This document shows, in pieces, positions 3,346 to 63,513 of a stretch of DNA of 64,000 nucleotides. The position numbers and the translations under genes were made by a program. The stretch is from an uncultured Chloroflexia bacterium (GTDB taxonomy: Bacteria; Chloroflexota; Dehalococcoidia; GIF9; UBA5629). How positions within the stretch are numbered: the first letter of the stretch is position 1; every line of letters starts with the position of its first letter. A model generated the notes under the pieces. That model saw only the letters and a program-made list of their open reading frames with translations. It had not been told where the DNA came from and did no database searches. The stretch is taken from positions 81,828 through 145,827 of the forward strand of contig CAVVVB010000014.1 of the NCBI GenBank assembly GCA_963751585.1. Direction: 5' to 3'.

Positions 3346-3605
3346 GACGGTGCCGTCACTCCTTTAGCTCCTTCTCCCCCGATCGCATCGGGAGAGAGGT
3401 TTTCCTCCTTTTGAAAAGGAAGACTAAATCCCTCTCAATCTCCCTTTAGCGAAAGGGAGAAGTTTATCTCCCCCTTAGAAAAAGGAGGATTTGTTCAGCG
3501 GGCGCACCTGAAGGTACGCCCCTACGTTCTATACTATAGCACGCATGCACTGACAAACCCCTCTCAACCCCGATTTTATCGGGGGGGGTCAAGGGGATTT
3601 TGAAT
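3346..3605. repeat. Intergenic spacer inside the wtp operon carrying short palindromic repeats (CCCCCTT-loop-AAGGGGG type and CCCGAT-loop-ATCGGG type)
   Basis: Hairpin-forming motifs visible directly: ctcccccttagaaaaaggagg, cccgatcgcatcggg, ccccgattttatcgggggggg. The same motif family occurs at 32940-33420, 37440-37570 and 48086-48420. Confidence 0.6.
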
Positions 3606-6168: not shown

Positions 6169-6201
6169 TTTACTTGTCCAGTTTATTCGTTAACTGCTGT
6201 A

Positions 6202-7734: not shown

Positions 7735-7833
7735 TTGTATCCACCTCCTAGAAAGCCAAGCTGTAGAGACAGTGAAAAAGAGCCCCATCGATAGTCCCAT
7801 ATTTTCACTGAGTAACCTCCTTCTGTAATCTAC

Positions 7834-10533: not shown

Positions 10534-10631
10534 CAAATCCACCTCCTATAAAATCCAAACTACAGAGGCAGTGAAATGGGGACGTATCGTTAGCCCCCAT
10601 CTCACTGGTGGCCTCTTTTCCTGGAATCTCT

Positions 10632-15465: not shown

Positions 15466-15837
15466 TTGTTTCCTCCTTCGATGTTTGTTGGATAATGTTT
15501 TAGGTCAATTGGTAGGCTAACTATTTCTTGTCTCTAATCACCTCCCTTGGCCAAACCGCATCCGGTCAAAGCGGCCGTTGCCGATTCGGTCTGAGTATAT
15601 TGGGGCCGGAGTTGCCTGAATGGAGGTGGATAAGGAGATGTTAAAAGGGAAGGACGGACAAGAAATAGAGAGTGTTGGTCATTATTCCAATTACCGCTCC
15701 TGTTGGAAAAACTATACATGTTATCTCCTTTCCAAGAATGGGAGGTATCACCTTTTCAGGTGATGCCCTACGGGCCTTTCTTCCTGGGATCACCCTTTAG
15801 AAGATAAGACTCGGAGATCGAATATGCCTGGCTATAT

Positions 15838-23771: not shown

Positions 23772-25028
23772 ATGAAGCGATTCAACACTGTTGCGGCGAT
23801 TCTGACTGCGGTGTTCATGCTGGTCAGCGCGTTGACTGTATCCAGTTGCGCCAAATCAACATCGCCCGCTCCACCATCGTCTGCACCACCCTCGCCCGCT
23901 ATGACACTTGATATCGGCATCTCAACCCCGTTAACCGGCCCCGTAGCCGAGCTTGGTACCCAGATAAAGAATACGACACTATTGGCCATAGAAGACCAGA
24001 ATGCTAAAGGCGGGGTCACTATTGCGGGGCAAAAGTATAAGCTCAATCCTATCATACGGGATAATAAACATGATATCGTTACCGCGAAGTCCGTAGCTGA
24101 AGAGTTGATATACGATAAACACGTAAAAATCATTGCCGGCCCGGCTATAGTTGATGCAATTGCCTCGCAGCCGGTTCTCGAATCCAACAAAGTCCTGGGC
24201 TTTTATCTAAACGTAATCGTAGACAGTATGTGCACGCCTCAAAAACCCTACTCCTTTTTCTTCGGCGGCTGCATACCTCAAACTTACAATAATGTAGCTG
24301 CCTACATACAAAAATTCTATCCCCAGGCAAAGACGGTCGTCTCCATGCTACCAGATTTGGCCGATACACCCACTTTTTTTGGGGCGGCACAAAAAATGTG
24401 TGACTTATACGGACTACAATGGGTGGCAGGCGAAAAATTTCCTATAACGACAACGGACTTTTTGCCGTTTATTAACCGGGTACTGGCTAAGAACCCGGAC
24501 ATAATCGACACCGCGTCCTGTGGCGGAGCGATCGGAGGTTTGACCGCGTCTTTGATAAAGCAAATCCGGCAGGCGGGTTTCACGGGCATAATTATGGTGC
24601 CCGAGGACCCACCGACAGGTTCGATTCAAGAGATTGTTCCTGACCAATATCGAACAAAGATTGTTGTTAATGACATAAATCCTGACAGCCCCATGGTGTC
24701 CGATGCTTATCGCCAGCTGTATCATCGATATACAGATACGTACAAGCAACTTCCATACGTTATCGTCGGTAGGATGTACAATGTGATAGTTCCTTTCTTC
24801 GACTTTCTCAATGGCCAGGATACCATGGATACTACCGCATGGATGGAGGGCTTTGCCAAATATCGCTGGCAGGGTATATGGGGAAAAGAAACATTCTGGC
24901 TGGGAAAGCCGATATGGGGAATCAATCGAATGGCCTTGATCGGGACCTGGGTCTCTGAATGGACGGATGGCAAGCTAGAGACTAAATGGGACAATCCTCT
25001 GCCAATGGACCTGTACTACGCTGAATAA
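23772..25028 (+). CDS. ABC-transporter substrate-binding lipoprotein, branched-chain amino acid (LivK/PBP type 1) family
   Basis: Lipoprotein signal (LTVSSC). DIGISTPLTGPVAELGTQIKNTTLLAIEDQNAKGGV..GQKY pattern of the Leu/Ile/Val-binding family. Paralogs at 50176..51927 and 57314..58558. Confidence 0.75.
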   Translation: MKRFNTVAAILTAVFMLVSALTVSSCAKSTSPAPPSSAPPSPAMTLDIGISTPLTGPVAELGTQIKNTTLLAIEDQNAKGGVTIAGQKYKLNPIIRDNKHDIVTAKSVAEELIYDKHVKIIAGPAIVDAIASQPVLESNKVLGFYLNVIVDSMCTPQKPYSFFFGGCIPQTYNNVAAYIQKFYPQAKTVVSMLPDLADTPTFFGAAQKMCDLYGLQWVAGEKFPITTTDFLPFINRVLAKNPDIIDTASCGGAIGGLTASLIKQIRQAGFTGIIMVPEDPPTGSIQEIVPDQYRTKIVVNDINPDSPMVSDAYRQLYHRYTDTYKQLPYVIVGRMYNVIVPFFDFLNGQDTMDTTAWMEGFAKYRWQGIWGKETFWLGKPIWGINRMALIGTWVSEWTDGKLETKWDNPLPMDLYYAE

Positions 25029-40097: not shown

Positions 40098-41231
40098 ATG
40101 GATTTTGGTTTCACCCGAGAACAAGAAATGCTCAGGGACATGGTTCGAGCGTTTGCCGAAAGCGAGTTGGCGCCCCATGCCTTGAGTTTGGATGAGAAGG
40201 CGAATTTTCCGTTCGATGAGTTGAAGAAGGCAGCCAAGCTTGGTCTGGCGGGGATAATCAACTCCAAAGAATACGGGGGCTCGGACATGGGGCATCTGGC
40301 CAGGATGATTATGATTGAGGAGATATCCAGGGTATATCCTCCACTGGGTTTTTGTTTTCAGACTGGTCAGTTAGGTATGTATGGGCTGCAAAACTATGGC
40401 ACTGACGCGCAGAAGAAGAAATATCTGCCGCCACTTTGTCGTGGAGAGGATGTCATGGCCTGGGCTGTTACCGAGGCAACAGGCGGCTCGGATCCTTCCA
40501 AGACCCAGACGACTGCCGAACCGGCTGGAGATGAGTACATAGTCAATGGCCGTAAGGTCTTTATTACGGCCGGTGAAACTGCCGGCGTTGTCGGCTTTTT
40601 AGCCAAGACCGGTGAGGCCATGAACTTTCTCTTAGTTGAGAAAGGAACACCCGGGTTCACGGCTCCACGAAGAGAGGAAAGCCTAGGACTACGTACAATA
40701 CCGGTCAGTGAGCTAGCTTTCACAAACTGTAAGATCCCCAAGGCAAACCTGCTTGGCTCGGAGGGGAAAGGAATCGGTGTGGCTCTGACGGCGATTGCAG
40801 CCGCGGGCAGAACCGGCGCCGCAGGGGTCAGTTTAGGCATTGCCCGAGGTTCTTACGAAGTAGCGGTAAAATTTGCCAAGGAGAGAAACCTATACGGGAA
40901 GGCCATCGCTCAATTGCAAGCGATTCAGTTTGCATTGGTAGATGTTAACGTTGAAATTGAAGCCGCCAAATGGCTGTGCTATCAGTCGGCCTGGCTATTG
41001 GACCAGGGAAAGAAAGCAACAGAGATAGCCGCAGAGATAGCCAGGGCAAAGCTATATGCTACTGATGTGGCCAATAAGACGTGTGCCAAGGCGGCGCAGA
41101 TAATGGGCGGTTACGGACTTATTCCTGAATATCATCTGGTACGTCGTTTGAGAGACGCTCTGGAGATGCTGCCGGCGGCAGGAACTCAGGACATAATGAG
41201 AGTCGTCATCGGCGCCGGTATTGCCCGCTAA
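40098..41231 (+). CDS. Acyl-CoA dehydrogenase
   Basis: ACAD N, middle and C-terminal domain pattern (e.g. AWAVTEATGGSDPSKTQTTA; catalytic region QIMGGYGLIPEYHLVRRLRDA). Confidence 0.85.
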   Translation: MDFGFTREQEMLRDMVRAFAESELAPHALSLDEKANFPFDELKKAAKLGLAGIINSKEYGGSDMGHLARMIMIEEISRVYPPLGFCFQTGQLGMYGLQNYGTDAQKKKYLPPLCRGEDVMAWAVTEATGGSDPSKTQTTAEPAGDEYIVNGRKVFITAGETAGVVGFLAKTGEAMNFLLVEKGTPGFTAPRREESLGLRTIPVSELAFTNCKIPKANLLGSEGKGIGVALTAIAAAGRTGAAGVSLGIARGSYEVAVKFAKERNLYGKAIAQLQAIQFALVDVNVEIEAAKWLCYQSAWLLDQGKKATEIAAEIARAKLYATDVANKTCAKAAQIMGGYGLIPEYHLVRRLRDALEMLPAAGTQDIMRVVIGAGIAR

Positions 41232-41252
41232 GGGATAACCCGGCTTAAACCC

Positions 41253-42054
41253 ATGTCGCTTAATCTCATTGTTTGCATTAAGCAGGTCCCGCATCCGGAA
41301 TACTTCTCGCGTATTACTCTCGACCCCGTTAAACAGACGATCGCCAGAGAGGGGATTCCTGCAGTAATGAATCCTTTCGATCGTTACGCCATAGAGGCCG
41401 CGTTACAGATCCGGGAGCAGTTTTCCGGCAAGGTGACGGTGATGAGCATGGGGCCTCCGCAGGCGGAAGATGCTCTTGATGAAGCCCTGGCGATCGGAGC
41501 CGACGATGCCATCCTATTGTGTGACAGGGCTTTTGCCGGGGCGGACACGCTGGCTACCGCCTATTCGCTAGCTTGCGGCATTAAACATCTGGGGGATTTT
41601 TCTCTCATCCTCTGTGGCAACGAAACGATAGATAGCGCTACAGGCCAGGTTGGCCCGCAGCTGGCTGAGTTTCTTGATATCCCTCATGTAACTTCTGTTA
41701 CCGGGATTGCCTTTGAGCAGGAAAACAGCTTGATAGCCAAGCAGGCTTTAGAGCAGGGTTATATGAAAGTCAGGGTCAGATTACCGGCCTTGCTCGCAGT
41801 GGCGAAGGGAATCAACCAGCCCAGGTTGCCCACGGTATTGGGAATAATGGAGGCCAGGAACAAGCCAATGCAAACGTGGGGAGCTGCCGATATCGGAGCC
41901 GATGTGGACATGATTGGGGCTTGGAGGGTCACCCACCCAGGTTACCGGAATTTTCAAACGGGATGTGACACGTCAAAGGGAGATCCTCGGAGGGTCACCT
42001 TCAGAGATAGCTCAGAAGGCAGTCGGCAGGCTTCAGGAGTTGCTGGCAAAATGA
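41253..42054 (+). CDS. etfB: Electron transfer flavoprotein beta subunit. The track shows a 598-aa etfB-etfA read-through caused by an extra G in a GGGG run at 41916-41919.
   Basis: EtfB N-terminus MSLNLIVCIKQVPHPEY. After removing one G, the frame gives …DMIGLEGSPTQVTGIFKRDVTRQREILGGSPSEIAQKAVGRLQELLAK, then the stop TGA overlapping the etfA ATG (ATGA at 42051-42054). Confidence 0.7.
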
Positions 42055-43049
42055 GCGAGGTATGGGTAATAGCCGAGCAAAGGCTGGGCAGGCTGATGAG
42101 CATTTCCTTGGAACTTTTAGGCAAGGGGACTGAGCTAGCCCGGAAGCTTAGGGTGAAATCGGGTGTTGTCCTGTTGGGGGACAATGTTCGTACCCAGGCA
42201 GATGAACTGGCCTACCATGGTGTAGACAGAGTTTACCTTGGGGAAGATCCGGGGCTTAGACTCTACCAGAGCCAGATTTATGCCGATATCATAACAGAAC
42301 TTATTCGCGCGCATAAGCCTCAAATCGTATTGATCGGGTCTACCAGCATCGGCCGGGACCTGGCTCCCAGGATAGCGGCTAAACTGAAGACCGGTCTGGT
42401 GGCTCACTGCGTGGAGCTGGATATTGTCGAAGACGGCGGTGGAAAGCCCCACCTGGTCCAGGTGGTGCCTGGCTGGGGTGGCAATTTGATGGTAAACATT
42501 GCCTGTCCCGTGAAAAGACCCCAAATAGCTACCGTAAACCCCGGAGTCATGACAAGATGCGCCCGGAGCGAGACGAAGGGTGAGATTGTTAAACTGGCAG
42601 TGGAAATACAGAAGGAATCCCGAGTGGAGACGCTGGAGATGGTTGAAGAGGAGTCACCTGGAGTAGCTCTGGAGGAGGCCGAGGTGGTAGTGGCTGGTGG
42701 GTGGGGTCTGGTCTCCGCTGGAGGGCTTGAGTCGCTCGAAGAGTTGGCTAAGATTTTAGGTGGGACAGTAGCTGGCACTCGCCCAGCATTGGATAGCGGA
42801 TGGATTACCGAGCCAAGAATGGTGGGCCAGAGCGGCAAGACGGTTAGCCCGAAGCTTTTCATCAGCGTCGGCGCGTCCGGTGCGCCTCAATTCACTACCG
42901 GCTTCGTGAAGGCGAAGGTCGTTCTGGCTATTGACCGGAATCCGGATGCCCCTATCTTCGATGTCGCGGATATCGGCTTGGTTGGAGACCTGAACGATAT
43001 TCTTCCTTGCCTGATCTCGGAGCTGAAAGACACCGGTCTGTGTGTTTAA
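42051..43049 (+). CDS. etfA: Electron transfer flavoprotein alpha subunit
   Basis: MSEVWVIAEQRLGRL start and a C-terminal FAD-binding region (…AIDRNPDAPIFDVADIGLVGDL). Confidence 0.8.
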   Translation: MSEVWVIAEQRLGRLMSISLELLGKGTELARKLRVKSGVVLLGDNVRTQADELAYHGVDRVYLGEDPGLRLYQSQIYADIITELIRAHKPQIVLIGSTSIGRDLAPRIAAKLKTGLVAHCVELDIVEDGGGKPHLVQVVPGWGGNLMVNIACPVKRPQIATVNPGVMTRCARSETKGEIVKLAVEIQKESRVETLEMVEEESPGVALEEAEVVVAGGWGLVSAGGLESLEELAKILGGTVAGTRPALDSGWITEPRMVGQSGKTVSPKLFISVGASGAPQFTTGFVKAKVVLAIDRNPDAPIFDVADIGLVGDLNDILPCLISELKDTGLCV

Positions 43050-43070
43050 CTCTAGTGCCCTGGAGATAAT

Positions 43071-43823
43071 GTGCAAAGCCGGTTATACAGCAAGCCGGGC
43101 TTGTACCGCCTGCTTTCTCCTCTCGAAGCGGCGGCTCACGATTCCGTAACGGTGTATATCACGCCTGATTCTTTCCCTGATTACGTGGGTGAGTTGCAAT
43201 TAGGGCCAAGATACCGGACACTCGCTGAAGAGATTAATGAGGCAGTAAACGCCGAGGCGGTAATCAGCGGCGCCCGTAGATACGGTACCGGCGCCGCCAT
43301 ATTCTGGGATGGGATTTATAATAAGCTCGTCGTCCTGCCGCCATTTCCAGTCGTTCACAATAAGCTCTTGGTGAATAAACTCGATACCTCTGGTCTTCGA
43401 GAGATCCTGGAGAAGAGGCGTGTCATAGGTGTGGTCCTGGTGACCTGGGGTTGGTACGCTTTAGGTGTGTTCGATGGTGGCAATCTGGTGGCATCGAAAA
43501 CAGGCACGGGGCATATTCACAAGAAACACAAGAAGGGTGGCAGCAGCCAGAAAAGGTTTGCCCGAAGGACGGAAGAGCAGAGGAGCGATTTCCTGCGAAG
43601 AGTCGGCAACAGGATTGACGAGAGGTTGATGGGTTTCGCCCCGGACCAGATCTTTTTCGGCGGCAACCGGCTAATTTTGAAGCCACTGATTGAGGAATCC
43701 AAATATCTGCAGGCAAGAACTGGCAAAATCCTACCTCGGATTCTGGATGTGCGCTATGCCGATAGAGAAGCTCTGGCCGGCAGCCTGGCCGAAATAACAA
43801 AGACGCAGGTCTTCACTTTTTGA
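43071..43823 (+). CDS. Putative bacterial Vms1/VLRF1-like (eRF1-fold) peptidyl-tRNA hydrolase-family protein
   Basis: HKKHKKGGSSQKRFARRTEEQR resembles the VLRF1 catalytic loop (Gln-containing GGQ-like motif followed by RF.R.RE). ~250 aa, consistent with an eRF1 domain-2-like core. Assignment is by motif only. Confidence 0.4.
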   Translation: MQSRLYSKPGLYRLLSPLEAAAHDSVTVYITPDSFPDYVGELQLGPRYRTLAEEINEAVNAEAVISGARRYGTGAAIFWDGIYNKLVVLPPFPVVHNKLLVNKLDTSGLREILEKRRVIGVVLVTWGWYALGVFDGGNLVASKTGTGHIHKKHKKGGSSQKRFARRTEEQRSDFLRRVGNRIDERLMGFAPDQIFFGGNRLILKPLIEESKYLQARTGKILPRILDVRYADREALAGSLAEITKTQVFTF

Positions 43824-48535: not shown

Positions 48536-49953
48536 TTACTTTGTTTTCCCGCGGGCCAGCGAAGCAAATACGCCCCCGAAACAAAGCACGGCGAATACAA
48601 TGAATGCTACGTCCACGCTCTTCACAAACCCTGCGTAATATTCCGGTGTAATCTCCACTCCGCCGACATATATGGCCAGCACCATCATGACTACCGCCAT
48701 ACTAAGCATCATTCCCATCTGTCGCATTGTCACCATTGTTGCCGAAGCTGTTCCGTAAGATCTGTAGTGTACAGAGCTCATCACTAGATTGGTGTTGGGC
48801 GTGGAGAAGAAAGCCGTGCCCAGGCCAAGGGTGGTTAATCCTGTTATGATGAACCACAGACTTGTCGTGGCATTTAAGAAAATGAAGATGATGAGGCCGA
48901 TGACCGTCAATCCCATGCCGGCAGAAGCTACAATCCTCGGCTCCATCTTATCGGAAAGCCTGCCGGCGAAAGGGGCAAAGACAGCCTGCATCAGAGGAGT
49001 TACTAACAAAACCAATCCGGCATTTTGGGGAGTGAGCCCTTTTATGTATTGCAGGTAAAGGCTCAGCAGAAAGGCTACGGCAAATGTAGCGCTGAGATTC
49101 AGTAATGCGGCCAGATTAGACAAAGTGAATACCGTGTTGTTCCGGAATACGCTTAAGTCCAAGATGGGATGCATCGTTCTGCTTTCCCATTTGACGAACC
49201 CAACGATTCCGAAAACGCCGGCAAGAATCAAAATGCCACCTGACATCTTCGGCAGGGCGGTGAGCCCGTACAATATGGCTGCAATTGTCACGCTGTAGAT
49301 TACGGAGCCGAAAATATCGAACTTTTCTCCCCTCGCTTCGACCCATTCATCTTTCAATTTCCAGAATATGAGACCGATTATCAATAATGTCAGCGGCACA
49401 TTTACCCAGAAGATGCTTCTCCAGCCCAGGTACTGTGTAAGTATTCCGCCCACAAACGGTCCGGAGGAGAGTCCCCCGTATGTTACGGCGGCGTTTATAC
49501 CCAGGACTTTGCCTCTCTCCCCGAGGGGATACGCCGAAGTAAGTATAGCCAGGGCGGTGGCGAAGATCATGGCTCCACCTATGCCCTGCAAAACGCGGAG
49601 GCAAAGGAGCATTGTGGATGAAGTCGACAATGCCAGAAGAATAGAGGTCAGGGTGTAGGTAAATATGCCGTAGGTGAAGATTCTCTTTCGGCCAACATGT
49701 CGGCTATTCTGCCGATAGGGATCAGGAATATGGTTGCTGACAGGAGATATGTTGTAGCTACCCAGCTCAGGGCAATGGCGTCCATCTTAAGCTCCTCCCC
49801 GATCGAGGGCAGGCCAACGATTATGGCTGAGCCCATGAAGGTGGTGAGGAAAGAGCCTATGGTCGTGACCAACAAAACTGCCTGCCGACTTTGTGCTTTT
49901 TCCATTCTAGTTCCGGGGTTGCAAGTTTTGCCTAAACCTGCGAATTCTATCAT
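48536..49953 (-). CDS. Second MFS DHA2-type transporter (tandem paralog), split by a single-base deletion near 49668-49672
   Basis: N-terminal piece (track 49648..49953) ends …PIGRIADM. The +1 frame continues (Y)GRKRIFTYGIFTYTLTSILLALSTSSTMLLC into track ORF 48536..49630. The upstream paralog reads ADIYGRKRIFTYG at the same point. Confidence 0.6.
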
Positions 49954-50175
49954 TTAGTTCGCAGGAATATGAAGTTATCGTCGAATATTTCCGGTCAGGC
50001 AGGGAACCTATGGCGGGGGTTAGGGTGAACGTCCGATTGCATTCGAGGGCGTAGGGAAGACAACCTAAGCCTAGGCGAGCGAACACGAGTGAACGCGATA
50101 AAAGGCTACTCGAACGGCTTCAAAGCTAATCAAGGCGAAAGTTGTATGACTATCGCAGGACGGGTCCTAACAGTA

Positions 50176-51927
50176 TCATTGTTTCTTCTGGTCATACAAT
50201 GTCGGCAAAAATCTCGGTAAGTCCTGCATTTCCAATTTGCAGTGCTCATAGGTAGCATCGAGAAACGCCTGCTCCGTCTTAGCTGGGAACGTAAACACCG
50301 AGTGTATCTTTATGCCGTTGGCCGACGGTGTGACATCATGTGTTAGCGTGCCCAGGTGCTTGCCATCCGGGGTTAGAAATTCGAGTCCCCTGGCGCCACC
50401 ACCTATGCCACCAGGAATGATATGGCAGCTAAACTGGGTGTAGTATGGGCCTATAATTTCCTCAATTTCTACGAGCGGTGTGCTGATGCCTGGCGGCACC
50501 GTCATCTTGGCTGAGAAGTGGTTTGTGGGTAACCACAGCCTGTAGTACTTTTCCAGGTTGCCGGAAAACCACCAGGTCCACATCTGGGGTGTTACGTTGG
50601 CTACCTCCTGGTCGACAACAACGTCCACCGTTTTACCCGCTGACTCGTCAAATGCCTTGAGCAGAACTTCCCCTCCGGTCGGTGTTCCTGTAACAAGTTT
50701 CAGAGGGAGAGGGGGTTCCCACCTAGTTTCCAGCTTCCCATCTATATATTCCGAAGCCCAGTTACACTTTAAAGCCATTCTGTCAATGCCCCACAACGGC
50801 TTTCCTATCCACCATGCTTCGTGCCCGAAATAGCCCTGCCAGTGATATTTGGCGAATCCCTCCATCCATGTGGTGGTGTCAGTGGTGTCCTGGCTGTTTA
50901 AGAATTCGAAGAACGGCTTGACGACATTGTACACTTGCACAACGATATCAATCGGGCTGGAATTGTACTTTTTTACGTACCTGCGACATATGTCACGGTA
51001 AGCGTCGCTCACTATGGGAGATTCCCAGTTTATATCGTTAGTGATGACCCGGCTGAGATATTTCTCCGGTACTACCTCTTCGACCGCCCCAGGAGGGGGT
51101 GGAGTAGTCATCCATACAATGCCGTTATAGCCGGCCTCCCGCAACTGCTTTAATAGGAGGGCAGCTAGTGCCCCCATGTCGCCTCCAGTAGTGCTCGTAT
51201 CTATTATGTCCGGGTTTTTGGCCATGGCACGGGTAATGAAGGGCATAAAGTCCTTTACATCAAAGGGGAACTTCTCGGCACCCAGCCAATTCAAGCCGTA
51301 CAATTTACATATCATCTGAACTGCATCTAAAGTCACTGGCCCATGGGGTAGATCAGGTATTATGGTTACGACCGTCTTCGCGTTGGGATAAAAATTTTGA
51401 ATATAAGCAGCCCCCGTATTAAACTGCGCCGGTGTGGGCGCACCGAAAAAGAAGGTATAGGGCTTGTTTGGACCTGACATGCCTGGCACGATAGGAACCA
51501 GCATAAAACTTATTATCTTATTGGGTTCAGTGATGGTTTGCGCGCCTACGGCATCAGCTATGCAAGGCCCGATAATAACCTTAACCTTCTTGTCATAGAC
51601 AAGTTCCTCGGCAAGAGACTTCGCCATAACAACATCGGCCCTACTATCGCGGATGATGGAATCGAGTGCATAATTTTGCCCGCCAATGGTAACTCCACCC
51701 TGCTTATTTTGGTCCTCTATTGCCATCAGCGTTGCGTTTTGGACACTAGTGCCGAGATTTGCCATCGGTCCGGTTAGTGGAGTTATGATGCCGATATCAA
51801 GTGTCTTTGATGGTATCGTGGCTGGTACTGATGGTGTGGCTGGTGTGGCTGGTTTAGCACATCCTACCACTATCATAGCTGCTACTGTTATTACCGCTGC
51901 CACTAGCAAGGTTGCAAATCTTCTCAT
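50176..51927 (-). CDS. Liv-type solute-binding lipoprotein with ~170-aa C-terminal extension of unknown function
   Basis: Signal and lipobox (VVGCAKP). DIGIITPLTGPMANLGTSVQNATLMAIEDQNKQGGV. The extra C-terminal region (…WEPPLPLKLVTGTPTGGEVLLKAFDE…GGIGGGARGLEF…) is absent from the two paralogs. Confidence 0.7.
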   Translation of the reverse strand: MRRFATLLVAAVITVAAMIVVGCAKPATPATPSVPATIPSKTLDIGIITPLTGPMANLGTSVQNATLMAIEDQNKQGGVTIGGQNYALDSIIRDSRADVVMAKSLAEELVYDKKVKVIIGPCIADAVGAQTITEPNKIISFMLVPIVPGMSGPNKPYTFFFGAPTPAQFNTGAAYIQNFYPNAKTVVTIIPDLPHGPVTLDAVQMICKLYGLNWLGAEKFPFDVKDFMPFITRAMAKNPDIIDTSTTGGDMGALAALLLKQLREAGYNGIVWMTTPPPPGAVEEVVPEKYLSRVITNDINWESPIVSDAYRDICRRYVKKYNSSPIDIVVQVYNVVKPFFEFLNSQDTTDTTTWMEGFAKYHWQGYFGHEAWWIGKPLWGIDRMALKCNWASEYIDGKLETRWEPPLPLKLVTGTPTGGEVLLKAFDESAGKTVDVVVDQEVANVTPQMWTWWFSGNLEKYYRLWLPTNHFSAKMTVPPGISTPLVEIEEIIGPYYTQFSCHIIPGGIGGGARGLEFLTPDGKHLGTLTHDVTPSANGIKIHSVFTFPAKTEQAFLDATYEHCKLEMQDLPRFLPTLYDQKKQ

Positions 51928-51971
51928 TTTCCCCCTCCTTTCACGACGCGTATGACAGCGACGATTGTATA

Positions 51972-53060
51972 CTACAGAATATTGGGTTCTAGCTCGTCAA
52001 ACCGCTTTTGGATCTCCTTATCTGAAAGACCAAAGAATTGCTGGAGGTTGTGGAATTGCCTGGTAAACCATGCCTCCTCAGCGTTTAGTTTCTGACAAAG
52101 TTCCTCATATTTGGCTAGTCCTTTTTCGGTAAGGTCACCCTTTTGTATAGCTTTTGCGGCTACCTCGGCAGCGATTCGTCCCGAATCAACTGCGAGGTCT
52201 ATTCCTAGAAGACCGGCTGCATCTCCAGCCAGCATCAGTCCATCTTTCACTTTCTTTGGGAGCATATCACTCATGGGTACAGGATGAGACCAGCCGGTCT
52301 CTCTCAATATCTTGCTGTCTCTAAACTTCTTGGATAGGACCCACTTTCCAGCCTTAATGTTCTCAAAATCACTCAGGCTCGAAGCACCTGATAAGGCCGA
52401 GCCGTTGCCATGGGGGACAATCGTGCTCTGCCCGGCTCTGCTAAAAGCACCCAGATGAAACTCGATGACACCGGGTTCAAGATCCCTGACGCCCGTCAGG
52501 TGCAATTTAAGACCTGAAAGCACCTGCTGGGCCGGGCGAGCCAGATTCTCCCATGTGGCAATGCCTTTAAACAACGCCCGAAGACCATCTGCTGCTATGA
52601 CGATCTTGCAGCGGACTGCAGGAAGCGTGCTTGAGCTTGTATTCACCCCCTTGATAGACCCGTTCTCCTTAATGAGACCAGTCACGCGAGTATTCACTAT
52701 AATTTCTGCGCCGGCATCCGCTGCCAGTTTGGCTAACTCCACGTCAAACATATTCCTTTCAATTATCCAGGGGCCTGGCTCCGGAAGTGGCCTTTCCTCC
52801 ACCATTTTGCCATTAGGTGCATAAATACGCCGTGCCTTTACCTTTGTTAAGACCACGCGTTGATCCATTATCTTAAGGAGGTTCTCCAGAATGCCGCTCT
52901 TGGTTCCGGGCATGACACCCACGCAGTGCTCCGGAAGGCCAATTTGGGGATCTTCTTCAAGCAGGATAGTTCTGAGGCCTTTTTCTGCAGCCGTCTTCGC
53001 TGCTTGAGAACCGCATGGTCCACCACCCACAACTACTACGTCGTAATCATATTTCGCCAT
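51972..53060 (-). CDS. Geranylgeranyl-reductase-family FAD-dependent oxidoreductase
   Basis: YDVVVVGGGPCGSQAAKTAAEKG dinucleotide fold at the N-terminus. GGAGG RBS before the ATG at 53060. Track start 53117 is probably too long. Confidence 0.65.
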   Translation of the reverse strand: MAKYDYDVVVVGGGPCGSQAAKTAAEKGLRTILLEEDPQIGLPEHCVGVMPGTKSGILENLLKIMDQRVVLTKVKARRIYAPNGKMVEERPLPEPGPWIIERNMFDVELAKLAADAGAEIIVNTRVTGLIKENGSIKGVNTSSSTLPAVRCKIVIAADGLRALFKGIATWENLARPAQQVLSGLKLHLTGVRDLEPGVIEFHLGAFSRAGQSTIVPHGNGSALSGASSLSDFENIKAGKWVLSKKFRDSKILRETGWSHPVPMSDMLPKKVKDGLMLAGDAAGLLGIDLAVDSGRIAAEVAAKAIQKGDLTEKGLAKYEELCQKLNAEEAWFTRQFHNLQQFFGLSDKEIQKRFDELEPNIL

Positions 53061-53359
53061 CCCAAACCTCCATAAATTGTTTTGTCGCAGTCTATCAGTC
53101 ACGGTCGACCTTGTCAACGCATTGGAAAGGGTGGCCGCAAGTTGCTCTGACTTAGTGTCCGCGTTACAATAAGCGCGATTGTAGAATAGGAAAAGGAGAG
53201 TTTGCCTGCGGGCAAATGCTTCACTACGGAGAATGACCGTAAGATAATCAAACAGAAAGAGATAATATCTCTCTCATAATTCTAGAGCCGGGTTAACAGT
53301 AGTTTTCTTGATCCAGAGATGGATATTGGCTCTACAAAATAGCGAAGGGGGCAAATGTT

Positions 53360-54661
53360 TTGAGTGAACTAAAAGGTACTAATGAACAGCCTAAGGTTGG
53401 TGAATGGCAGGCGCAGAAGAGTACAAAGCAGTTGAGAACCTCAGCAGCTGTAAGTGCTCACCAGAAAGAGTGGTTCCAGGGCATGAGACAGAGAATAGGT
53501 CAAGGTGAGCCCTTCGCAATATGTAATGCCGGTGAGTGTGAGGAAGTCTTTGCTGTCATGGATATTCCGGTCGTAGTGAAACAATGGTGGTCGGCAATGA
53601 TCGCTGCCAAGCAATTGTCTGCCGACTATTTCAACCTGCTGGATGAGGCGGGTTACGACCAGTGTCGTTACTGTGCCCTGGGGTTAGGTTGTACCATGGA
53701 CAACAAGCCGGAGCGTGCCCCCTGGGGAGGACTGCCCAAACCCGCAGTGATAATAGGGGGAAACATACCGGGGTCAGAATGTGACGCTCATCAAAAAATA
53801 AACGAGCTCTGGGCCCGCGAATACGGTACGTTCTTCTTTCCGCTAGAGGTAACTTTTCCTACCCGACTATATCCTCGCTGGTGGGAAAAGATAAAAGAAC
53901 ATTGGGACGAAGTAATTGAGCCGCACAGGCTCGACTTGAGAGTTGAGGAGCTGAAGGAGCTAATAAGGTTCTTAGAGATTACAACGGGAAGGGTATTCAG
54001 CATGGCAAAGCTGGTGGAAGTCATGGAATTAACCAATGAGCAGAATGAATACTTCAAGAAGGCGCATGACTTGATAGCTGAGACGGTTCCTTGTCCCATA
54101 AGTTTATCCGAACAGGTCTCGGTATATCGGGCGCAATGGCATCGCGGTACCCAAGTAGGTATTGATCTAACCAGGATGTTTTATGAGGAGGTAAAAGAGC
54201 GGGTGAACAACGGTGAAGCGGCCTGCCCCAATGAAAAGCTCAGGCTAATGTGGAGCGGAGTGGGACTCTGGCATAACACTGCTTTTTATCAGTACTTTGA
54301 GGAGAGATATGGCGCCGTTTTCGTGTGCTCTGAGTATCTAGCTGTGGCGGCAGATGGTTATCAGCGCAGTCTGCTTAATGACCCATTCAGGGCTCTGGCA
54401 AGTCGTTGTGTATTTCTGGGGCTTAGAGGCGGCGATTGGCGCGTAAAGGAAGCCAAAATGAATAAGGTCAATGGGGTGGTTCAGCTGGTGAAGAGGGGCT
54501 GCCGCGAATCCATTGAAGCGCCGTTGATCAGGATGGCTCTGGAAAATGCCGGTATACCGGTACTTCCTATTTATGCTGATAACGTTGATCCCAGGGATTG
54601 GGATGATGCCAAGATGAAATCTCTAGTTTCTGAGTTTATTGAAACGCGCATTTTAGACTAA
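53360..54661 (+). CDS. 2-hydroxyacyl-CoA dehydratase family protein (HgdB/HadC/BcrB-like D-component family); lone subunit
   Basis: ~430 aa. Pattern …CNAGECEEVF.AMDIP.V…W……YCALGLGC… with conserved Cys residues typical of the HGD-D family. Probable TTG start after GAAGGGGG. Confidence 0.55.
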   Translation: MSELKGTNEQPKVGEWQAQKSTKQLRTSAAVSAHQKEWFQGMRQRIGQGEPFAICNAGECEEVFAVMDIPVVVKQWWSAMIAAKQLSADYFNLLDEAGYDQCRYCALGLGCTMDNKPERAPWGGLPKPAVIIGGNIPGSECDAHQKINELWAREYGTFFFPLEVTFPTRLYPRWWEKIKEHWDEVIEPHRLDLRVEELKELIRFLEITTGRVFSMAKLVEVMELTNEQNEYFKKAHDLIAETVPCPISLSEQVSVYRAQWHRGTQVGIDLTRMFYEEVKERVNNGEAACPNEKLRLMWSGVGLWHNTAFYQYFEERYGAVFVCSEYLAVAADGYQRSLLNDPFRALASRCVFLGLRGGDWRVKEAKMNKVNGVVQLVKRGCRESIEAPLIRMALENAGIPVLPIYADNVDPRDWDDAKMKSLVSEFIETRILD

Positions 54662-54713
54662 TGCATATAAGTGAGATGACCTGAGGCTAGAAACAATAAG
54701 AAGCTGAGGCAAA

Positions 54714-55955
54714 ATGGCTGATGCGCTATTGAACGGTTTTCAGGCTCTTGACCTGACAGACGATAAAGGATTTGCCTGCGGGCAGATCTTGGCTTCACTA
54801 GGCGTTGATGTAGTAAAGATTGAGAAACCCGGTGGAGAGCCAGCACGAAATATACCACCTTTCTATCATGATGAACCGGAGCCGGAGAAAAGCCTTCACT
54901 GGTTTGCTTTCAATACCGACAAAAGGAGTATTACCCTTGACTTAGAGAAGGAACGGGGACGCGAGCTATTCAAAAAGCTGGTCGCCAAAGCTGATTTCAT
55001 ACTGGAATCGTTCCTTCCAGGCTATATGGATGGCCTCGGGATCGGTTACGAAGCCTTAAGCCGCCTGAATAAGAGAATCATCGTGACCTCTATTACCCAC
55101 TTTGGCCAGGCAGGGCCGTATAGCCTTTACAAAGGATGTGAGATCGTAGATTCCGCTATGAGCGGAGTATTGGACAACACGGGACACCCAGACCGCCCAC
55201 CGGTGAAAGAAGCCATCGGCACTATATATTTTCATGCCGGCGCTGCCGCCGCTCTCGGAACGCTGATAAGCCATTATTCTCGTGAAATTACTGGCGAGGG
55301 ACAGCAGGTTGACGTTTCAATACGGGAGGTTGCCGCCAGTCGGACTACATTATGTCTGCTACCCTGGCAGTGGGATAAGCGTCTGGTAAAGCGCGGTGGG
55401 CCAATGGGCCAGATTGGATTCCGGCCTTTCAGGTGGATTTGGCCGTGCAAAGATGGATACATATTTTGGATGTTCAGTGGTGGTCCCGTCGGGGCACCGG
55501 CCAACCGAGCTTTGTCCAAATGGATTGATGAAGATGGACTGGAAAACCCCCTGAGCCAGGTAACAAACTGGGAGGAGCTGGACATGGCTTCAATGACTCA
55601 ACAAACCCATGACGCTTTTCAGGAGACAATCGGCAAGTTTTTCCTGCGACGCACCAAGAAGGAGATATCCGAGGAGGGATTAAGGCGGGGGATAAACGCA
55701 GTTATTGCCAGCGATCCTGCCGATGTTCTTTCCAACCCTCAGCTTAATGCGAGGAACTTTTGGATTGGCCTGGAGCATCCAGACCTAGGGGTCACGCTCA
55801 AATATCCCAGGCATTTCTTTCTGTGCAGTGAAACGGAAAACTATGCGAGGCATCCGGCTCCCAATATCGGTCAGGACAACACCGAAATGTACGTTAAAGA
55901 ATTAGGCTTAACTAGCCAGGAAGTCGCCGAATTGGAGAAGACGGGCGTGATTTGA
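54714..55955 (+). CDS. Family III CoA-transferase (CaiB/BaiF family)
   Basis: LQALDLTDDKGFACGQILASLGVDVVKIEKPGG.P.R and a downstream catalytic Asp region (VLDNTGHPDRPP). Confidence 0.8.
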   Translation: MADALLNGFQALDLTDDKGFACGQILASLGVDVVKIEKPGGEPARNIPPFYHDEPEPEKSLHWFAFNTDKRSITLDLEKERGRELFKKLVAKADFILESFLPGYMDGLGIGYEALSRLNKRIIVTSITHFGQAGPYSLYKGCEIVDSAMSGVLDNTGHPDRPPVKEAIGTIYFHAGAAAALGTLISHYSREITGEGQQVDVSIREVAASRTTLCLLPWQWDKRLVKRGGPMGQIGFRPFRWIWPCKDGYIFWMFSGGPVGAPANRALSKWIDEDGLENPLSQVTNWEELDMASMTQQTHDAFQETIGKFFLRRTKKEISEEGLRRGINAVIASDPADVLSNPQLNARNFWIGLEHPDLGVTLKYPRHFFLCSETENYARHPAPNIGQDNTEMYVKELGLTSQEVAELEKTGVI

Positions 55956-55980
55956 ATGAAGAATACACCTATGGAGAAAT

Positions 55981-57201
55981 ATGCCTAAGCAGGCATTAGA
56001 CGGAGTAAAGGTACTGGATTTTGGCTGGATTATTGTCGGCGCTCTGACCGGCAAACATCTTGCCGACCACGGGGCCCAGGTGGTTCGCGTAGAGAGTGTT
56101 ACACGTCCGGACGCCATGAGGGAAACGCGGCAGGTTTCCGTATCCACCGCAGCCAACCCAGATAATAAGCCAATGTTTAACTATCTGAATACTTCAAAAT
56201 ACAGCCTGGCAGTTGATTTGAAACATCCCAGAGCCAGAGAGGTCATAGACAGGCTTGTCCGCTGGGCTGACGTGGTCAACGAGAACTTTACCCCAGGGAC
56301 AATGAGCAAGCTGGGTTTGAGCTACGAATATGTCAGAAAGATAAAGCCCGATATCATTATGGTTGGAAGCAGTGTATACGGCCAGACAGGGCCTCTTGCC
56401 CGCGAATGGGGATTGGACGGAACCGGTATGACTTTGTCAGGTCATATTCATCTTACGGGATGGCCGGACAGAGAGCCGGTGATGACGACTTGTTCTCCAT
56501 ACGGAGATATAATGCTTCCGCTCTTCGCCGCCTCGGCTATTGTGGCTGCTCTGGATTACAAGCGGCGGACAGGAAAAGGACAGTATATAGATGCGAGTAT
56601 GCTTGAGGTTTGCACTTACAAGATCAGCCCGGCCTTATTGGACCTGCAAGCCAATGGACGCCTACAAACACGTAGCGGTAACCGCCTGCCTTATGCTGCA
56701 CCACATGGTGTATTCCCTTGCGTCGGAGATGATCGCTGGTGCGCCATCGCCGTGTTCAATAATGAGGAGTGGGAATCTTTCTGCCACGTGATCGGAGACC
56801 CGCCTTGGACAAGAAAGAGGAAATTTGCCAGTATCGACTTGAGGAAGCAGAATGAAGAGGAGCTGGAGAAGCTGGTTGCAGATTGGACCAAGGGCCATTC
56901 GGCTGAAGACGTTATGCGTATGATGCAGGCGGCTGGCGTGCCGGCAGGCGTGGTGCAGAACGCCCGTGACATATTGGAGAATGACCGCCAAATGACGGAA
57001 CGTGAATTCCTAGTGCCGTTGAAACACCCTGCTCTGGGGGTATTCGGTCACCCGACCCCTCCCTACAAATTGCTCAAGACCAAAGCGCAAGTGAGGACGT
57101 CTCCCTGTTTCGGCGAGCACACCGAATACGTTTGCACTCATCTGCTTGGTATGTCCGACGAGGAGTTTGTTGAGCTATTGCAGGAGAAAGTCTTTACATA
57201 G
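55981..57201 (+). CDS. Family III CoA-transferase (CaiB/BaiF family), second paralog
   Basis: LDGVKVLDFGWIIVGALTGKHLADHGAQVVRVE and the same fold layout as the upstream paralog. Confidence 0.8.
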   Translation: MPKQALDGVKVLDFGWIIVGALTGKHLADHGAQVVRVESVTRPDAMRETRQVSVSTAANPDNKPMFNYLNTSKYSLAVDLKHPRAREVIDRLVRWADVVNENFTPGTMSKLGLSYEYVRKIKPDIIMVGSSVYGQTGPLAREWGLDGTGMTLSGHIHLTGWPDREPVMTTCSPYGDIMLPLFAASAIVAALDYKRRTGKGQYIDASMLEVCTYKISPALLDLQANGRLQTRSGNRLPYAAPHGVFPCVGDDRWCAIAVFNNEEWESFCHVIGDPPWTRKRKFASIDLRKQNEEELEKLVADWTKGHSAEDVMRMMQAAGVPAGVVQNARDILENDRQMTEREFLVPLKHPALGVFGHPTPPYKLLKTKAQVRTSPCFGEHTEYVCTHLLGMSDEEFVELLQEKVFT

Positions 57202-57313
57202 GACATGGAATTCTCTATTTCTTGTCTCTACGGGATGTTCCAAGAATATAGGAACCACTTACACAAGCTTAGTTAACCGCTTCCTGATATTTGGATAATG
57301 GGAGGTTTGAGGA

Positions 57314-58558
57314 ATGAAAAAGATATTTCTATCAGCAGCAGGTGTGTTTCTAATAGCCGGTTGGATTTTCACCGGCTGTGCACAACCTGCCCAAACGCCA
57401 TCCGGATCCGTAACACAGGCGACCACCTCGCCAAAGACATTGGACATTGGCATTGCCACCCCACTAACCGGGCCAACGGCATTTGTGGGCGGCTACTACC
57501 GAAATGCAGCCTTGCTGGCGATGGATGACCAGAACAAGGAAGGCGGAGTCACTATTGCCGGGCAAAGGTACGTGCTAAATGCCATCGTCCGTGATACTAA
57601 ACAGGATTTGGTTCTTGGCAAGAGCATTGCTGAGGAGCTCATTTTTGACAAAGGGATAAAGGTCATTATTGGTCCTTTCATTTCGGACGCCATCGGTGCC
57701 CAGAGAGTTACCGAGCCCAACAAGGTAATAACCTTTCTAGCGGGGGAGATTGTCAAGGGTATGTGTGCTCCAGACAAGCCCTATTCCTTCTTCTGCAATT
57801 CCACCTTCGAGCAGTCTTATGTTAATCCTGCTGCCTACGTACAAAAATTCTATCCAGAATTAAGGAATGTGATTTCCATGTCGCCCGACCTTCCTAGCTT
57901 GCCATCGTATGTGGCTGCAATTGAAGCAGTGTTACCACAATACCATTTGAACTGGCTGGGCATGGAGAAGTTCCCTTTGGGCACGAAGGACCTGACACCG
58001 GTAATTTCACGCGTAATGGCTAAGAACCCGGACATCATAGACATCTGCTGCACGGGTGGGATGGCCGGCATAGGCAGCCTTTCTATAAAACAGCTGCGGG
58101 AACAAGGTTTTAAGGGCCCTATTTTGGTTCCTCTTCCGCCTTCCATAGGTGAGCTGGAAGAGGTCGTGCCCAAGGAGTATCTTACCAAAATTGTCATTAA
58201 CTACCCTGACAAGGATAGTCCAATAGTTAGTGAGGCCTTTCGTACTGTATACAATGAGGCCAAGGAGAGATATCAGCAAGACCCTGAGACCCCCCTGTTT
58301 TTCTTCTATAACCCGGTGAGAGCTTTCTTCAAGTTTCTGGATGGTCAGGATACTATGGATAGTACCGCGTGGATGGAAGGTTTTGCTAGATACCACTGGC
58401 AAGGGATATTTGGATTTGAGAACTACTGGGTGGGGAAGAAGGTTTGGGGGATTGATCGACACGTCTTTGTCTATCCTTGGGTCTCGGAGTACATAGATGG
58501 CAAGCTGGTAACTCAATTTTCAGCTCCCATTCCTTACGACATGTTTGTGGAAAAGTAA
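57314..58558 (+). CDS. Liv-type solute-binding lipoprotein (third paralog)
   Basis: Signal and lipobox (FTGCAQP). DIGIATPLTGPTAFVGGYYRNAALLAMDDQNKEGGV. Confidence 0.75.
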   Translation: MKKIFLSAAGVFLIAGWIFTGCAQPAQTPSGSVTQATTSPKTLDIGIATPLTGPTAFVGGYYRNAALLAMDDQNKEGGVTIAGQRYVLNAIVRDTKQDLVLGKSIAEELIFDKGIKVIIGPFISDAIGAQRVTEPNKVITFLAGEIVKGMCAPDKPYSFFCNSTFEQSYVNPAAYVQKFYPELRNVISMSPDLPSLPSYVAAIEAVLPQYHLNWLGMEKFPLGTKDLTPVISRVMAKNPDIIDICCTGGMAGIGSLSIKQLREQGFKGPILVPLPPSIGELEEVVPKEYLTKIVINYPDKDSPIVSEAFRTVYNEAKERYQQDPETPLFFFYNPVRAFFKFLDGQDTMDSTAWMEGFARYHWQGIFGFENYWVGKKVWGIDRHVFVYPWVSEYIDGKLVTQFSAPIPYDMFVEK

Positions 58559-62365: not shown

Positions 62366-62617
62366 ATGGCCATTTCAAGTGAGAATCAAGTATGCAATAC
62401 TAAGTTAGATAACACGAATGCATTGAAATCGCAGGTAATGAGGAGTAGCAGTATGAACGCTGATACCGCCCTATATATGCACCAATTAGAAGCTATAGTA
62501 GCTTGTCACCAGAGCGATGGCTACCTACAGAAGTGGGCACAAGACATACTAAAGGAAATGCAATACCAGATAGAATCCGTTGCGCCACCAGCCAAAACCC
62601 TTGTCGCAGTAAAATAA
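62366..62617 (+). CDS. Hypothetical small protein (83 aa or shorter)
   Basis: ORF only. No recognisable motifs. Confidence 0.25.
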   Translation: MAISSENQVCNTKLDNTNALKSQVMRSSSMNADTALYMHQLEAIVACHQSDGYLQKWAQDILKEMQYQIESVAPPAKTLVAVK

Positions 62618-62637
62618 ATCTATCAAAGTGCCATAAG

Positions 62638-63513
62638 ATGATTCCCTGGCTTCTGGCACTGGTTATTTTTGCTGTCGGCTGTGCGCCAGGCGGTGCCATT
62701 AACATTAGCGCTCCTGTTCAACAACCGGTAATCAATTCTTTTAGTGTCAGCCCGCCAAGCATTTCAGCTGGCGAATCTGCGACACTCAGCTGGACTGTCA
62801 CTGGAGCTACTACAGTTAGCATCGACCAGGGGATAGGCAGTGTGCCTGCTGCCGGGACAATGTCGGCATCACCAACCAAATCCACGACTTACACTTTGAC
62901 TGCCATCAATCCTGCCGGTACAGTCACTGGCTCGGTGACTGCTGACGTGCCCGCAGCATCTAAAGCGCCGCCACAACCTTCGCCGACGGCCGGAACAATG
63001 TCTGCGCCGCCACAACCTTCGCCGGCGCCCAGTACAATGCCTGGGCCCAAACCAACCTCTATTTGCTGTACTCTCACGGTAATAGTCAGCCCTACTGCAG
63101 CAGGAAAGGTTACGCTTGCACCTCCAGGCAATGAGTATGCACCCGGCACCGTGGTTACTCTAACGGCTGTCCCTGGATCAGGCTATAAATTTCACGGCTG
63201 GGGTGGTGCTGTTTTGGGTAACTCAACCGTAATAAGCCGGGTTATAGACTCCAACGAGAGTGTTATCGCCTATTTCACACTAAGCTCTAGCGTCCGTGAT
63301 CTCGATGTATCCGTAAGCCCTCCTGGGACAGGCGAGGTCATATATTCGCCTGGAGACTATAAATGTGGCACTGTGGTCACTTTATGGGCTACTCCTCAAC
63401 GGGGCTATCAATTTGACCACTGGGGTGGTGCTGTTTCGGGTACGTCAGCCACGATAAGCCAAAGTATAGGCTCCAACGAGAGCATTGTCGCCTATTTCAA
63501 GCAAAAGCCTTAG
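62638..63513 (+). CDS. Lipoprotein with one Ig-like domain and two divergent InlB-B-repeat-like domains (GY.F..WGG motif)
   Basis: Start MIPWLLALVIFAVGCAPG has a lipobox. The track ORF begins earlier at 62503 in a region without signal features. Repeated …GY(K/Q)F(H/D)(H)WGGAV.G.S..IS..I.SNES(V/I)(I/V)AYF twice. Confidence 0.6.
   Translation: MIPWLLALVIFAVGCAPGGAINISAPVQQPVINSFSVSPPSISAGESATLSWTVTGATTVSIDQGIGSVPAAGTMSASPTKSTTYTLTAINPAGTVTGSVTADVPAASKAPPQPSPTAGTMSAPPQPSPAPSTMPGPKPTSICCTLTVIVSPTAAGKVTLAPPGNEYAPGTVVTLTAVPGSGYKFHGWGGAVLGNSTVISRVIDSNESVIAYFTLSSSVRDLDVSVSPPGTGEVIYSPGDYKCGTVVTLWATPQRGYQFDHWGGAVSGTSATISQSIGSNESIVAYFKQKP

Follow-up and report, generated by a model that had tools for sequence, protein, structure and literature searches.

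Does a protein of the 2-hydroxyacyl-CoA dehydratase family (HGD-D) whose gene stands alone, with neither a partner subunit nor an activator beside it, represent a new kind of enzyme, or is it what is left of a larger system? The question is raised by a gene cluster in a stretch of 64,000 nucleotides (hereafter the window) from contig CAVVVB010000014.1 of an uncultured Chloroflexia bacterium (assembly GCA_963751585.1), in which an initial annotation, made from the DNA letters, had recognized a single HGD-D subunit, two family III CoA-transferases, a geranylgeranyl reductase-like (GGR-like) flavoprotein, and two solute-binding lipoproteins of the Liv type; the open reading frame (ORF) listing and the Pfam matches confirm all six ORFs, their coordinates, and their families, with E-values well outside what chance would give (Table 1). 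Below, L is the large and S the small HGD-D subunit, T1 and T2 are the CoA-transferase subunits, and numbers of the form L008 denote related loci. We conclude that the cluster is a conserved module in truncated form and that its single HGD-D protein does not stand for a new kind of lone enzyme.

The membership of L in HGD-D is secure, with a score of 172.3 bits against PF06050 (gathering cutoff 28.4) over profile positions 20-340 of 342. It has 794 homologs at E<=1e-10 and 112 representative clusters at E<=1e-30 in a 50%-identity library, many of the library representatives being 740-845 amino acids long with L at the C-terminus, and the subfamily is found in Dehalococcoidia, Thermodesulfobacteriota, Bacillota, Bacteroidota, and Actinomycetota. 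We compared 87 loci including the window, 80 of them from a scan of species-representative genomes annotated with local hidden Markov models (HMMs); the best match among those genomes is 64% identical. The gene tables of the relatives contain a second HGD-D protein of about 380 residues, S, together with one to several family III CoA-transferases. S is adjacent or fused to L in 83 of the 86 related loci, six loci encode natural S-L fusions as one polypeptide, and a CoA-transferase is present in 78 of the 87 loci. Apart from the window, a full S is missing from L026, where the upstream region is fragmentary and the CoA-transferase truncated, from L015, where the end of the contig cuts it, and from L027, where only an S fragment is found. 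The subfamily is thus a paired one, and the comparison does not bear out the suggestion that the window protein might be one of a set of lone HGD-D homologs. The full module is a two-subunit Fe-S enzyme (L plus S, of the BzdNO/HadBC superfamily) with a BbsEF-type CoA-transferase; a full-text literature search found no published function for an S-L-CoA-transferase module.

The operon order in the window is L-T1-T2, without S, and comparison with the nearest relatives locates the break. Specifically, i) L008, a frameshift-ridden contig from another sample, is 82-83% identical in nucleotide sequence to window positions 50170-57200 and has the same order of binding protein (the counterpart of the 583-residue protein), flavoprotein, L, T1, and T2; ii) T2 is followed in L008 by S, a short-chain dehydrogenase (SDR), a binding protein, a flavoprotein, and a ferredoxin, and the segment carrying S and the SDR (L008 11692-14000) has no counterpart in the window; iii) L090 and L093 share the L-T-T-S order; and iv) in a four-way alignment of the window, L008, L090, and L093, window homology ends exactly at the T2 stop codon. 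Since the nearest relatives have S right after T2 and the window has none, the lone state is a derived local loss or relocation. Nor is a partner hidden nearby: in tblastn searches of the whole window with seven S sequences the best hit (E=0.038) fell on the L gene itself, and no partner concealed by frame errors, a possibility named in the initial annotation, came to light; among the window ORFs of at least 60 residues, HMMs for L, S, YjiM, and YjiL recovered only one L gene; and no S remnant could be found in the 242 bp upstream of L or the 112 bp after T2. The reported absence of a dehydratase partner and of an activator therefore holds for all 64 kb. Of the proposal that both might be encoded elsewhere, the part concerning the partner is now the likelier alternative, but the part concerning the activator meets with its absence from all 87 loci.

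We were able to assign L to the catalytic rather than the relay type of subunit. Sequence searches of the PDB with L return MbdO (1.1e-22), HadB (5.1e-15), and BzdO (1.7e-13), and the same three lead a family-profile search (3.6e-35, 1.8e-27, and 5.4e-27). An AlphaFold2 model of L (mean predicted local distance difference test score, pLDDT, 86.5), comprising two alpha/beta domains and a helical insert, gives template modeling (TM) scores of 0.78-0.81 to the catalytic subunits MbdO, BzdO, and HadB, only 0.64 to the relay subunits BzdN, MbdN, and HadC, and 0.67-0.70 to DCCP, lower than to the catalytic subunits. Because the model superposes on MbdO, BzdO, and HadB better than on the relay subunits, L is a catalytic-type subunit, and HadB/BzdO/MbdO-like in place of the HgdB/HadC-like assignment first given to it. 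An alignment for [4Fe-4S] cysteines, called for in the initial annotation, places Cys102, Cys141, and Cys381 of L on the ligand cysteines of HadB, making them the predicted ligands of its cluster; three-cysteine coordination is common to HadB and BzdO (Cys95/128/380 in BzdO; PMC11971306), and the same pattern is aligned in L. The three ligand cysteines are conserved in 54 of 85 loci, and an extra fourth, Cys105, which forms a CxxC motif with Cys102, is a trait of the subfamily. We dropped His144 (Cys141+3, like His131 of BzdO) as a catalytic argument, as it is not conserved in the family.

The two CoA-transferase genes match, one to one, the subunits of benzylsuccinate CoA-transferase BbsEF (9FN0), the best PDB match being chain A for T1 (9fn0_A, 8.5e-59) and chain B for T2 (9fn0_B, 6.1e-69), and hence form a BbsEF-like heterodimer. 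As in BbsEF, two paralogous family III subunits are adjacent and the catalytic Asp is confined to the chain B type: T2 keeps it as Asp176, in the alignment column that holds Asp in both 9fn0_B and SUGCT, whereas T1 has Tyr172 at that position, as chain A also has Tyr, and is probably non-catalytic. Analogy with the known enzyme suggests a substituted dicarboxylate as the substrate of T1T2 and succinyl-CoA as the donor, in keeping with the general idea, already put forward for this cluster, of uptake and CoA activation of an organic acid. The likeness has its limits: identity is roughly 35-40% (by eye from alignments), and the other bbs beta-oxidation genes (bbsG, H, CD, AB-like) are absent from the window cluster. 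An SDR and an enoyl-CoA hydratase are present at the locus in L008 and L090.

Although the window lacks S, its relatives show what the subunit is like. By profile S is closest to BzdN (8.3e-58), then HadC, DCCP, and MbdN, and BzdN is also the top match in a fold search with a model of moderate quality (pLDDT 70). In the window clade, S retains Cys33, Cys263, and Cys293 as well as Arg50, Arg267, and Arg286; the three cysteine positions are also cysteine in BzdN and DCCP, and Arg53, Arg267, and Arg290 of BzdN surround its distal sub-cluster (PMC11971306), so that S keeps cysteines and arginines at the positions around that site. S is without the canonical proximal cysteine triad of HadC and BzdN; with three of the six aligned ligand cysteines a double cubane is unlikely, and we infer from the alignment that S probably has just one cluster, located at the distal site. 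The Bzd-type class I benzoyl-CoA reductases BzdNO and MbdON (8S02, 9G87) are thus the best sequence and fold relatives of L and S, but they come with a BzdPQ/MbdPQ ATPase that is missing here, S has only half of the aligned cysteines, L reaches 65 of the 449 bits required by the bzdO model, and the Bzd-type reductases are linked to benzoate-CoA ligase and ring-cleavage genes where the present module is linked to CoA-transferases.

To our knowledge, characterized HGD-D enzymes (2-hydroxyacyl-CoA dehydratases, class I benzoyl-CoA reductases, and DCCP) all need an ATP-hydrolyzing activator. The activator injects an electron of very low potential, and in known systems its gene is adjacent to that of the enzyme; since activators act catalytically, sharing one in trans is possible in principle. 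No YjiL/HgdC/BcrAD-type ATPase was found in any of the 87 loci (flanks up to 10 kb) even at E<=10, in a search whose HMM was built on one seed (E. coli YjiL) and for which no distant activator served as positive control; PF01869 was likewise missing from the precomputed Pfam tables of nine loci. The missing activator to which the initial annotation drew attention is therefore real for the window but not peculiar to it. The cysteine complement is variable, all four combinations of kept and absent in S and L occurring among loci L009-L088: an L with CCCC is accompanied in the window clade by an S with five or six conserved cysteines, but at most Bacillota loci by an S with none; about nine loci pair a cysteine-free L with a cysteine-rich S; the aerobic actinomycetes (Microbispora, Nonomuraea, and Actinomadura; L063 and L065 are from Microbispora) have no cysteines in L or S; and Bacteroidota have CCCT in L. 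The Fe-S ligands of the subfamily appear to be dispensable, and the lack of an activator nearby, together with the loss of ligands in some members, points to a different priming of the enzyme or to a different chemistry.

Is L still maintained in the window, and if so, where could S be? L has neither a frameshift nor a stop codon, and its 91% amino acid identity to the L008 counterpart is the highest in the cluster, with a ratio of nonsynonymous to synonymous substitution rates (dN/dS) of 0.094; the other cluster genes range from 0.067 to 0.153, with T1 and T2 at about 0.07. Lineage-specific replacements, counted for the window and L008 with L004, L006, and L007 as outgroups, are balanced for L (12 in the window lineage, 12 in L008) and for the flavoprotein (26 and 26). 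At near-invariant columns L deviates in 6 of 73, mostly conservatively, compared with 1-7 for the Cys-retaining A1 members other than P0010, which has 15. Because L is intact, keeps its ligand cysteines, and is under purifying selection, its partner is most likely an S whose gene lies elsewhere; such conservation argues against long-standing decay, although S could still have been lost recently. A candidate for the trans partner is P0135, an S-type protein of 381 residues known from one contig only (176,518 bp; NCBI and ENA), which was found with the reconstructed S of L008 and is 74% identical to that S and 80% to the S of L093.

Our preferred reading, to which we give a probability of about 0.5, is that L remains in use, together with an S encoded in trans, for breaking down an organic acid that is imported and then activated by the BbsEF-like transferase. 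In such a pathway a (di)carboxylic acid would be taken up through the binding lipoproteins; T1T2 would make its CoA thioester, probably with CoA from succinyl-CoA; L, paired with an S subunit from elsewhere in the genome, would transform the acyl-CoA at the cluster of L, either dehydrating a 2-hydroxyacyl-CoA or reducing an unsaturated acyl-CoA; the GGR-like flavoprotein would handle a C=C bond or supply electrons; and the family would do all this without relying on a co-encoded HgdC/BcrAD-type ATPase.

Several points weigh against this reading: i) the substrate and the two candidate reactions of L-S are drawn by analogy only, and L falls far below the cutoff of every equivalog model, with 81.4 bits (cutoff 750) for HadB NF052455, its best NCBIfam match, 65.5 (cutoff 448.6) for a partial match to bzdO TIGR03191, and 50.4 (cutoff 350) for the double-cubane model NF040772; ii) the cysteine-free pairs of aerobic actinomycetes mean that what the family has in common may be something other than radical or redox chemistry; iii) the narrow base of the activator HMM, given above, limits what can be made of the empty loci; iv) no permease or ATPase for the Liv-type binding proteins is encoded in the 64-kb window, whose sole ABC transporter is a molybdate/tungstate-type system (1511-4688); v) lineage-specific replacements in the transferases are about 2.3-2.6 times more numerous in the window than in L008 (41 versus 18 in T1, 31 versus 12 in T2); vi) an MFS gene next to the cluster (48536-49953, minus strand) is broken into ORFs of 101 and 364 residues, the frameshift lying near 49640 within the motif GRIADM-GRKRIF, and is either a pseudogene or the product of a sequencing error; and vii) the origin of P0135 in the same genome is circumstantial and unproven, and its 74% identity to the L008 counterpart, as against 91% for L, shows that it is not a simply relocated ortholog, so that, if it is the partner, it would come from a paralogous cluster.

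More tentatively, the absence of activators could be read as a property of the whole family, the S-L enzymes being an activator-independent branch of BzdNO/HadBC that always goes with BbsEF-like CoA-transferases, has a modular Fe-S complement, with both subunits, one, or neither carrying a cluster, and needs no ATP-driven low-potential electron for its shared CoA-ester chemistry; in the window clade the electron, if one is needed, would be supplied by the GGR-like flavoprotein or a ferredoxin. If this were true, the window would present L maintained while S is supplied in trans.

A classical ketyl-radical 2-hydroxyacyl-CoA dehydratase of the Had or Fld type, with its beta subunit and an HgdC-type activator elsewhere in the genome, is a doubtful alternative. 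Established knowledge of HadA/HadBC and FldA/FldBC makes a family III CoA-transferase beside HGD-D genes the expected gene set for such an enzyme, L has the HadB fold (TM 0.80-0.87) and cysteines at the three canonical HadB ligand positions, HadB is its best NCBIfam match, and a catalytically acting activator could be shared in trans. But none of the 87 loci has an activator gene within ±10 kb, whereas the known systems have theirs adjacent, the Had and Fld systems including HadI and FldI; S is without the proximal triad of HadC and BzdN, L has the extra Cys105, a BbsEF-like heterodimer takes the place of the single HadA, the HadB model gives 81 rather than 750 bits, and there are cysteine-free members in aerobes. 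As for the two subunits that HadBC, HgdAB, and FldBC have in common, the window has L only and the beta-type subunit is absent, whereas both are present in 83 of 86 related loci. Where annotation pipelines give these genes the label [quoted passage not shown], attempts to reconstruct the metabolism of subsurface Chloroflexota are probably misled.

It is unlikely that L is a relic, S having been lost by rearrangement and L, possibly with T1 and T2, now becoming a pseudogene. Natural fusions indicate that S is normally obligatory, the break at the T2 stop codon is clean, and the frameshifted MFS gene, the faster change of T1 and T2 in the window lineage, and a second S-less locus (L026) would all fit decay; yet L itself has no frameshift or stop, its dN/dS is 0.094, its 12 versus 12 replacements show no acceleration, its ligand cysteines are kept and its near-invariant residues largely so, and even T1 and T2 have dN/dS values of only about 0.07.

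Less probable still is a homodimer of L that acts without S, in the manner of DCCP or E. coli YjiM. Single-gene homodimeric HGD-D enzymes of the same fold do exist (DCCP, 6ENO and 7YYL; yjiM), and L is under purifying selection at a locus with one HGD-D gene and no partner; however, its clade is a heterodimeric one, in which 83 of 86 loci provide a dedicated S and fusions occur as well, the double-cubane model gives 50 rather than 350 bits, L has four conserved cysteines where the six-cysteine double cubane has six, and both DCCP and YjiM come with an adjacent ATPase (DCCP-R, YjiL) that is absent here. Least probable of all is an assembly misjoin after T2 that removed S, for, although the source is a contig of a metagenome-assembled genome (159,024 bp), the breakpoint falls exactly at a gene end, and related samples contain highly similar paralogous clusters (one sample yielded both L008 and L093), the junction is a normal-looking 112-bp spacer with a ribosome-binding site before the binding-protein gene and with intact genes on both sides. 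An exact 21-mer across the T2/binding-protein junction had no match in the metagenome collection, and relatives of the second binding protein were found only on contigs of 1-1.6 kb.

Table 1. Features of the L-T1-T2 cluster and its flanks, in window coordinates
Feature	Position	Strand	Evidence or remark
Solute-binding lipoprotein, 583 aa	50176-51927	-	Pfam Peripla_BP_6, 1.8e-37, domain residues ~43-370
GGR-like FAD oxidoreductase, 381 aa	51972-53117	-	Pfam FAD oxidoreductase families; divergent from L
Divergent intergenic region flavoprotein/L	53118-53359		Inverted repeats and ribosome-binding site
L, large HGD-D subunit, catalytic-type, 433 aa	53360-54661	+	PF06050, 2.8e-50
T1, family III CoA-transferase subunit, 413 aa, 9fn0_A-like	54714-55955	+	CoA_transf_3, 3.1e-70
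T2, family III CoA-transferase subunit, 406 aa, 9fn0_B-like	55981-57201	+	CoA_transf_3, 1.2e-103
Synteny breakpoint	57202-57313		Conserved spacer then S gene in relatives; neither in window
Second solute-binding lipoprotein, 414 aa	57314-58558	+	Peripla_BP_6, 2.3e-30; sits where relatives have S

The intergenic region between the flavoprotein gene and L is homologous to that of L008, with conserved blocks, so that the operon of this lineage begins with L. L has a TTG start with the ribosome-binding site GAAGGGGG 8 nt before it. The region also contains the inverted repeats TTTGCCTGCGGGCAAA (53201-53216) and GAAAGAGATAATATCTCTCTC (53255-53275), the second of which is conserved in part in L008; they may be operator sites, and no regulator gene adjoins them. 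A scan for promoters and terminators returned no more candidates than shuffled sequence does.

The flavoprotein was described from the outset as GGR-like, and its best solved relative is indeed a geranylgeranyl reductase, that of T. acidophilum (3OZ2, 1.8e-42), followed by FixC (1.2e-11). It scores 131.5 bits against the geranylgeranyl reductase model TIGR02032, below the cutoff of 158.8 but still closest to that family. Orthologs flank the module in L004, L006, L008, L090, and L093 (59-78% identity), and outside the closest clade the gene occurs at few loci (L015, L062). In that clade the module is extended by this flavoprotein, in some cases by a ferredoxin too, and by either a binding protein or a TRAP (tripartite ATP-independent periplasmic) transporter. 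A small ferredoxin gene lies next to the flavoprotein in L004 and L008, recalling the archaeal pairing of geranylgeranyl reductase with ferredoxin, whereas none adjoins the flavoprotein of the window. Moreover, the archaeal enzyme serves lipid synthesis, while the context here is one of CoA-ester catabolism.

The binding lipoproteins are paralogous, as had been proposed, being 50% identical to each other with lipobox-like N-termini (VVGC and FTGC, read from the sequence). The 583-residue protein carries an additional C-terminal extension of about 170 residues (50176-50682) beyond Peripla_BP_6, which has a weak partial match to the 2,4-diacetylphloroglucinol (DAPG) hydrolase PhlG (5e-8, residues 436-477) and no solved relative by sequence; its L008 ortholog (579 residues, 83% identical, dN/dS 0.14) has the same extension. 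The protein at 57314-58558 is only about 50% identical to all others of the window, L008, L090, and L093. A third paralogous binding protein is encoded at 23772-25028 beside a fumarate reductase-like flavoprotein (21575-23257), the segment 21575-25028 being about 70% identical in nucleotide sequence to a ferredoxin and flavoprotein pair in L008 (1852-3783); the organism has many paralogous sets of binding protein and flavoprotein.

Among the neighbors of the family at large, CapA-like PGA_cap proteins of metallophosphatase fold are the commonest (47 loci, in 40 within about 4.5 kb; for example L005, L035, L036, and L040), often with peptide-type binding proteins or an S15 peptidase. TRAP transporters occur at about 23 loci, AMP-ligases at 19, and glycyl radical enzymes, for which no specific solved match was found, at 17, with activases at 15; enoyl-CoA hydratases and PucR regulators also recur. 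As all of these neighbors are absent from the window, they do not fix the substrate.

Some further features may be recorded. The CoA-transferases of L093 are 82-86% identical to those of the window, its L gene (5961-7255) is only about 62-67% identical and broken by stops, and this suggests mosaic evolution of the L093 cluster or decay of its L. In the window, an acyl-CoA dehydrogenase is followed by a 598-residue fused electron-transfer flavoprotein (beta-alpha) and then by an acVLRF1-type release factor-like protein (40098-43823); the dehydrogenase and the fused flavoprotein, 10 kb away, are possible downstream partners of the cluster. Release factors of the acVLRF1 type are typical of Actinobacteria and Chloroflexi, and the 90%-identity cluster to which an HtrA-like protein of the window belongs has a member annotated as dehalococcoidial, so that the host is probably one of the Dehalococcoidia. 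A molybdenum/tungsten cofactor (Moco) riboswitch (71 bits; 15709-15828, minus strand) lies upstream of a 436-residue ORF without a Pfam match (14155-15465), and large predicted surface proteins with divergent InlB B-repeats and Kre9/CHU_C-like domains are encoded at 6202-12371 and 62503-63513.

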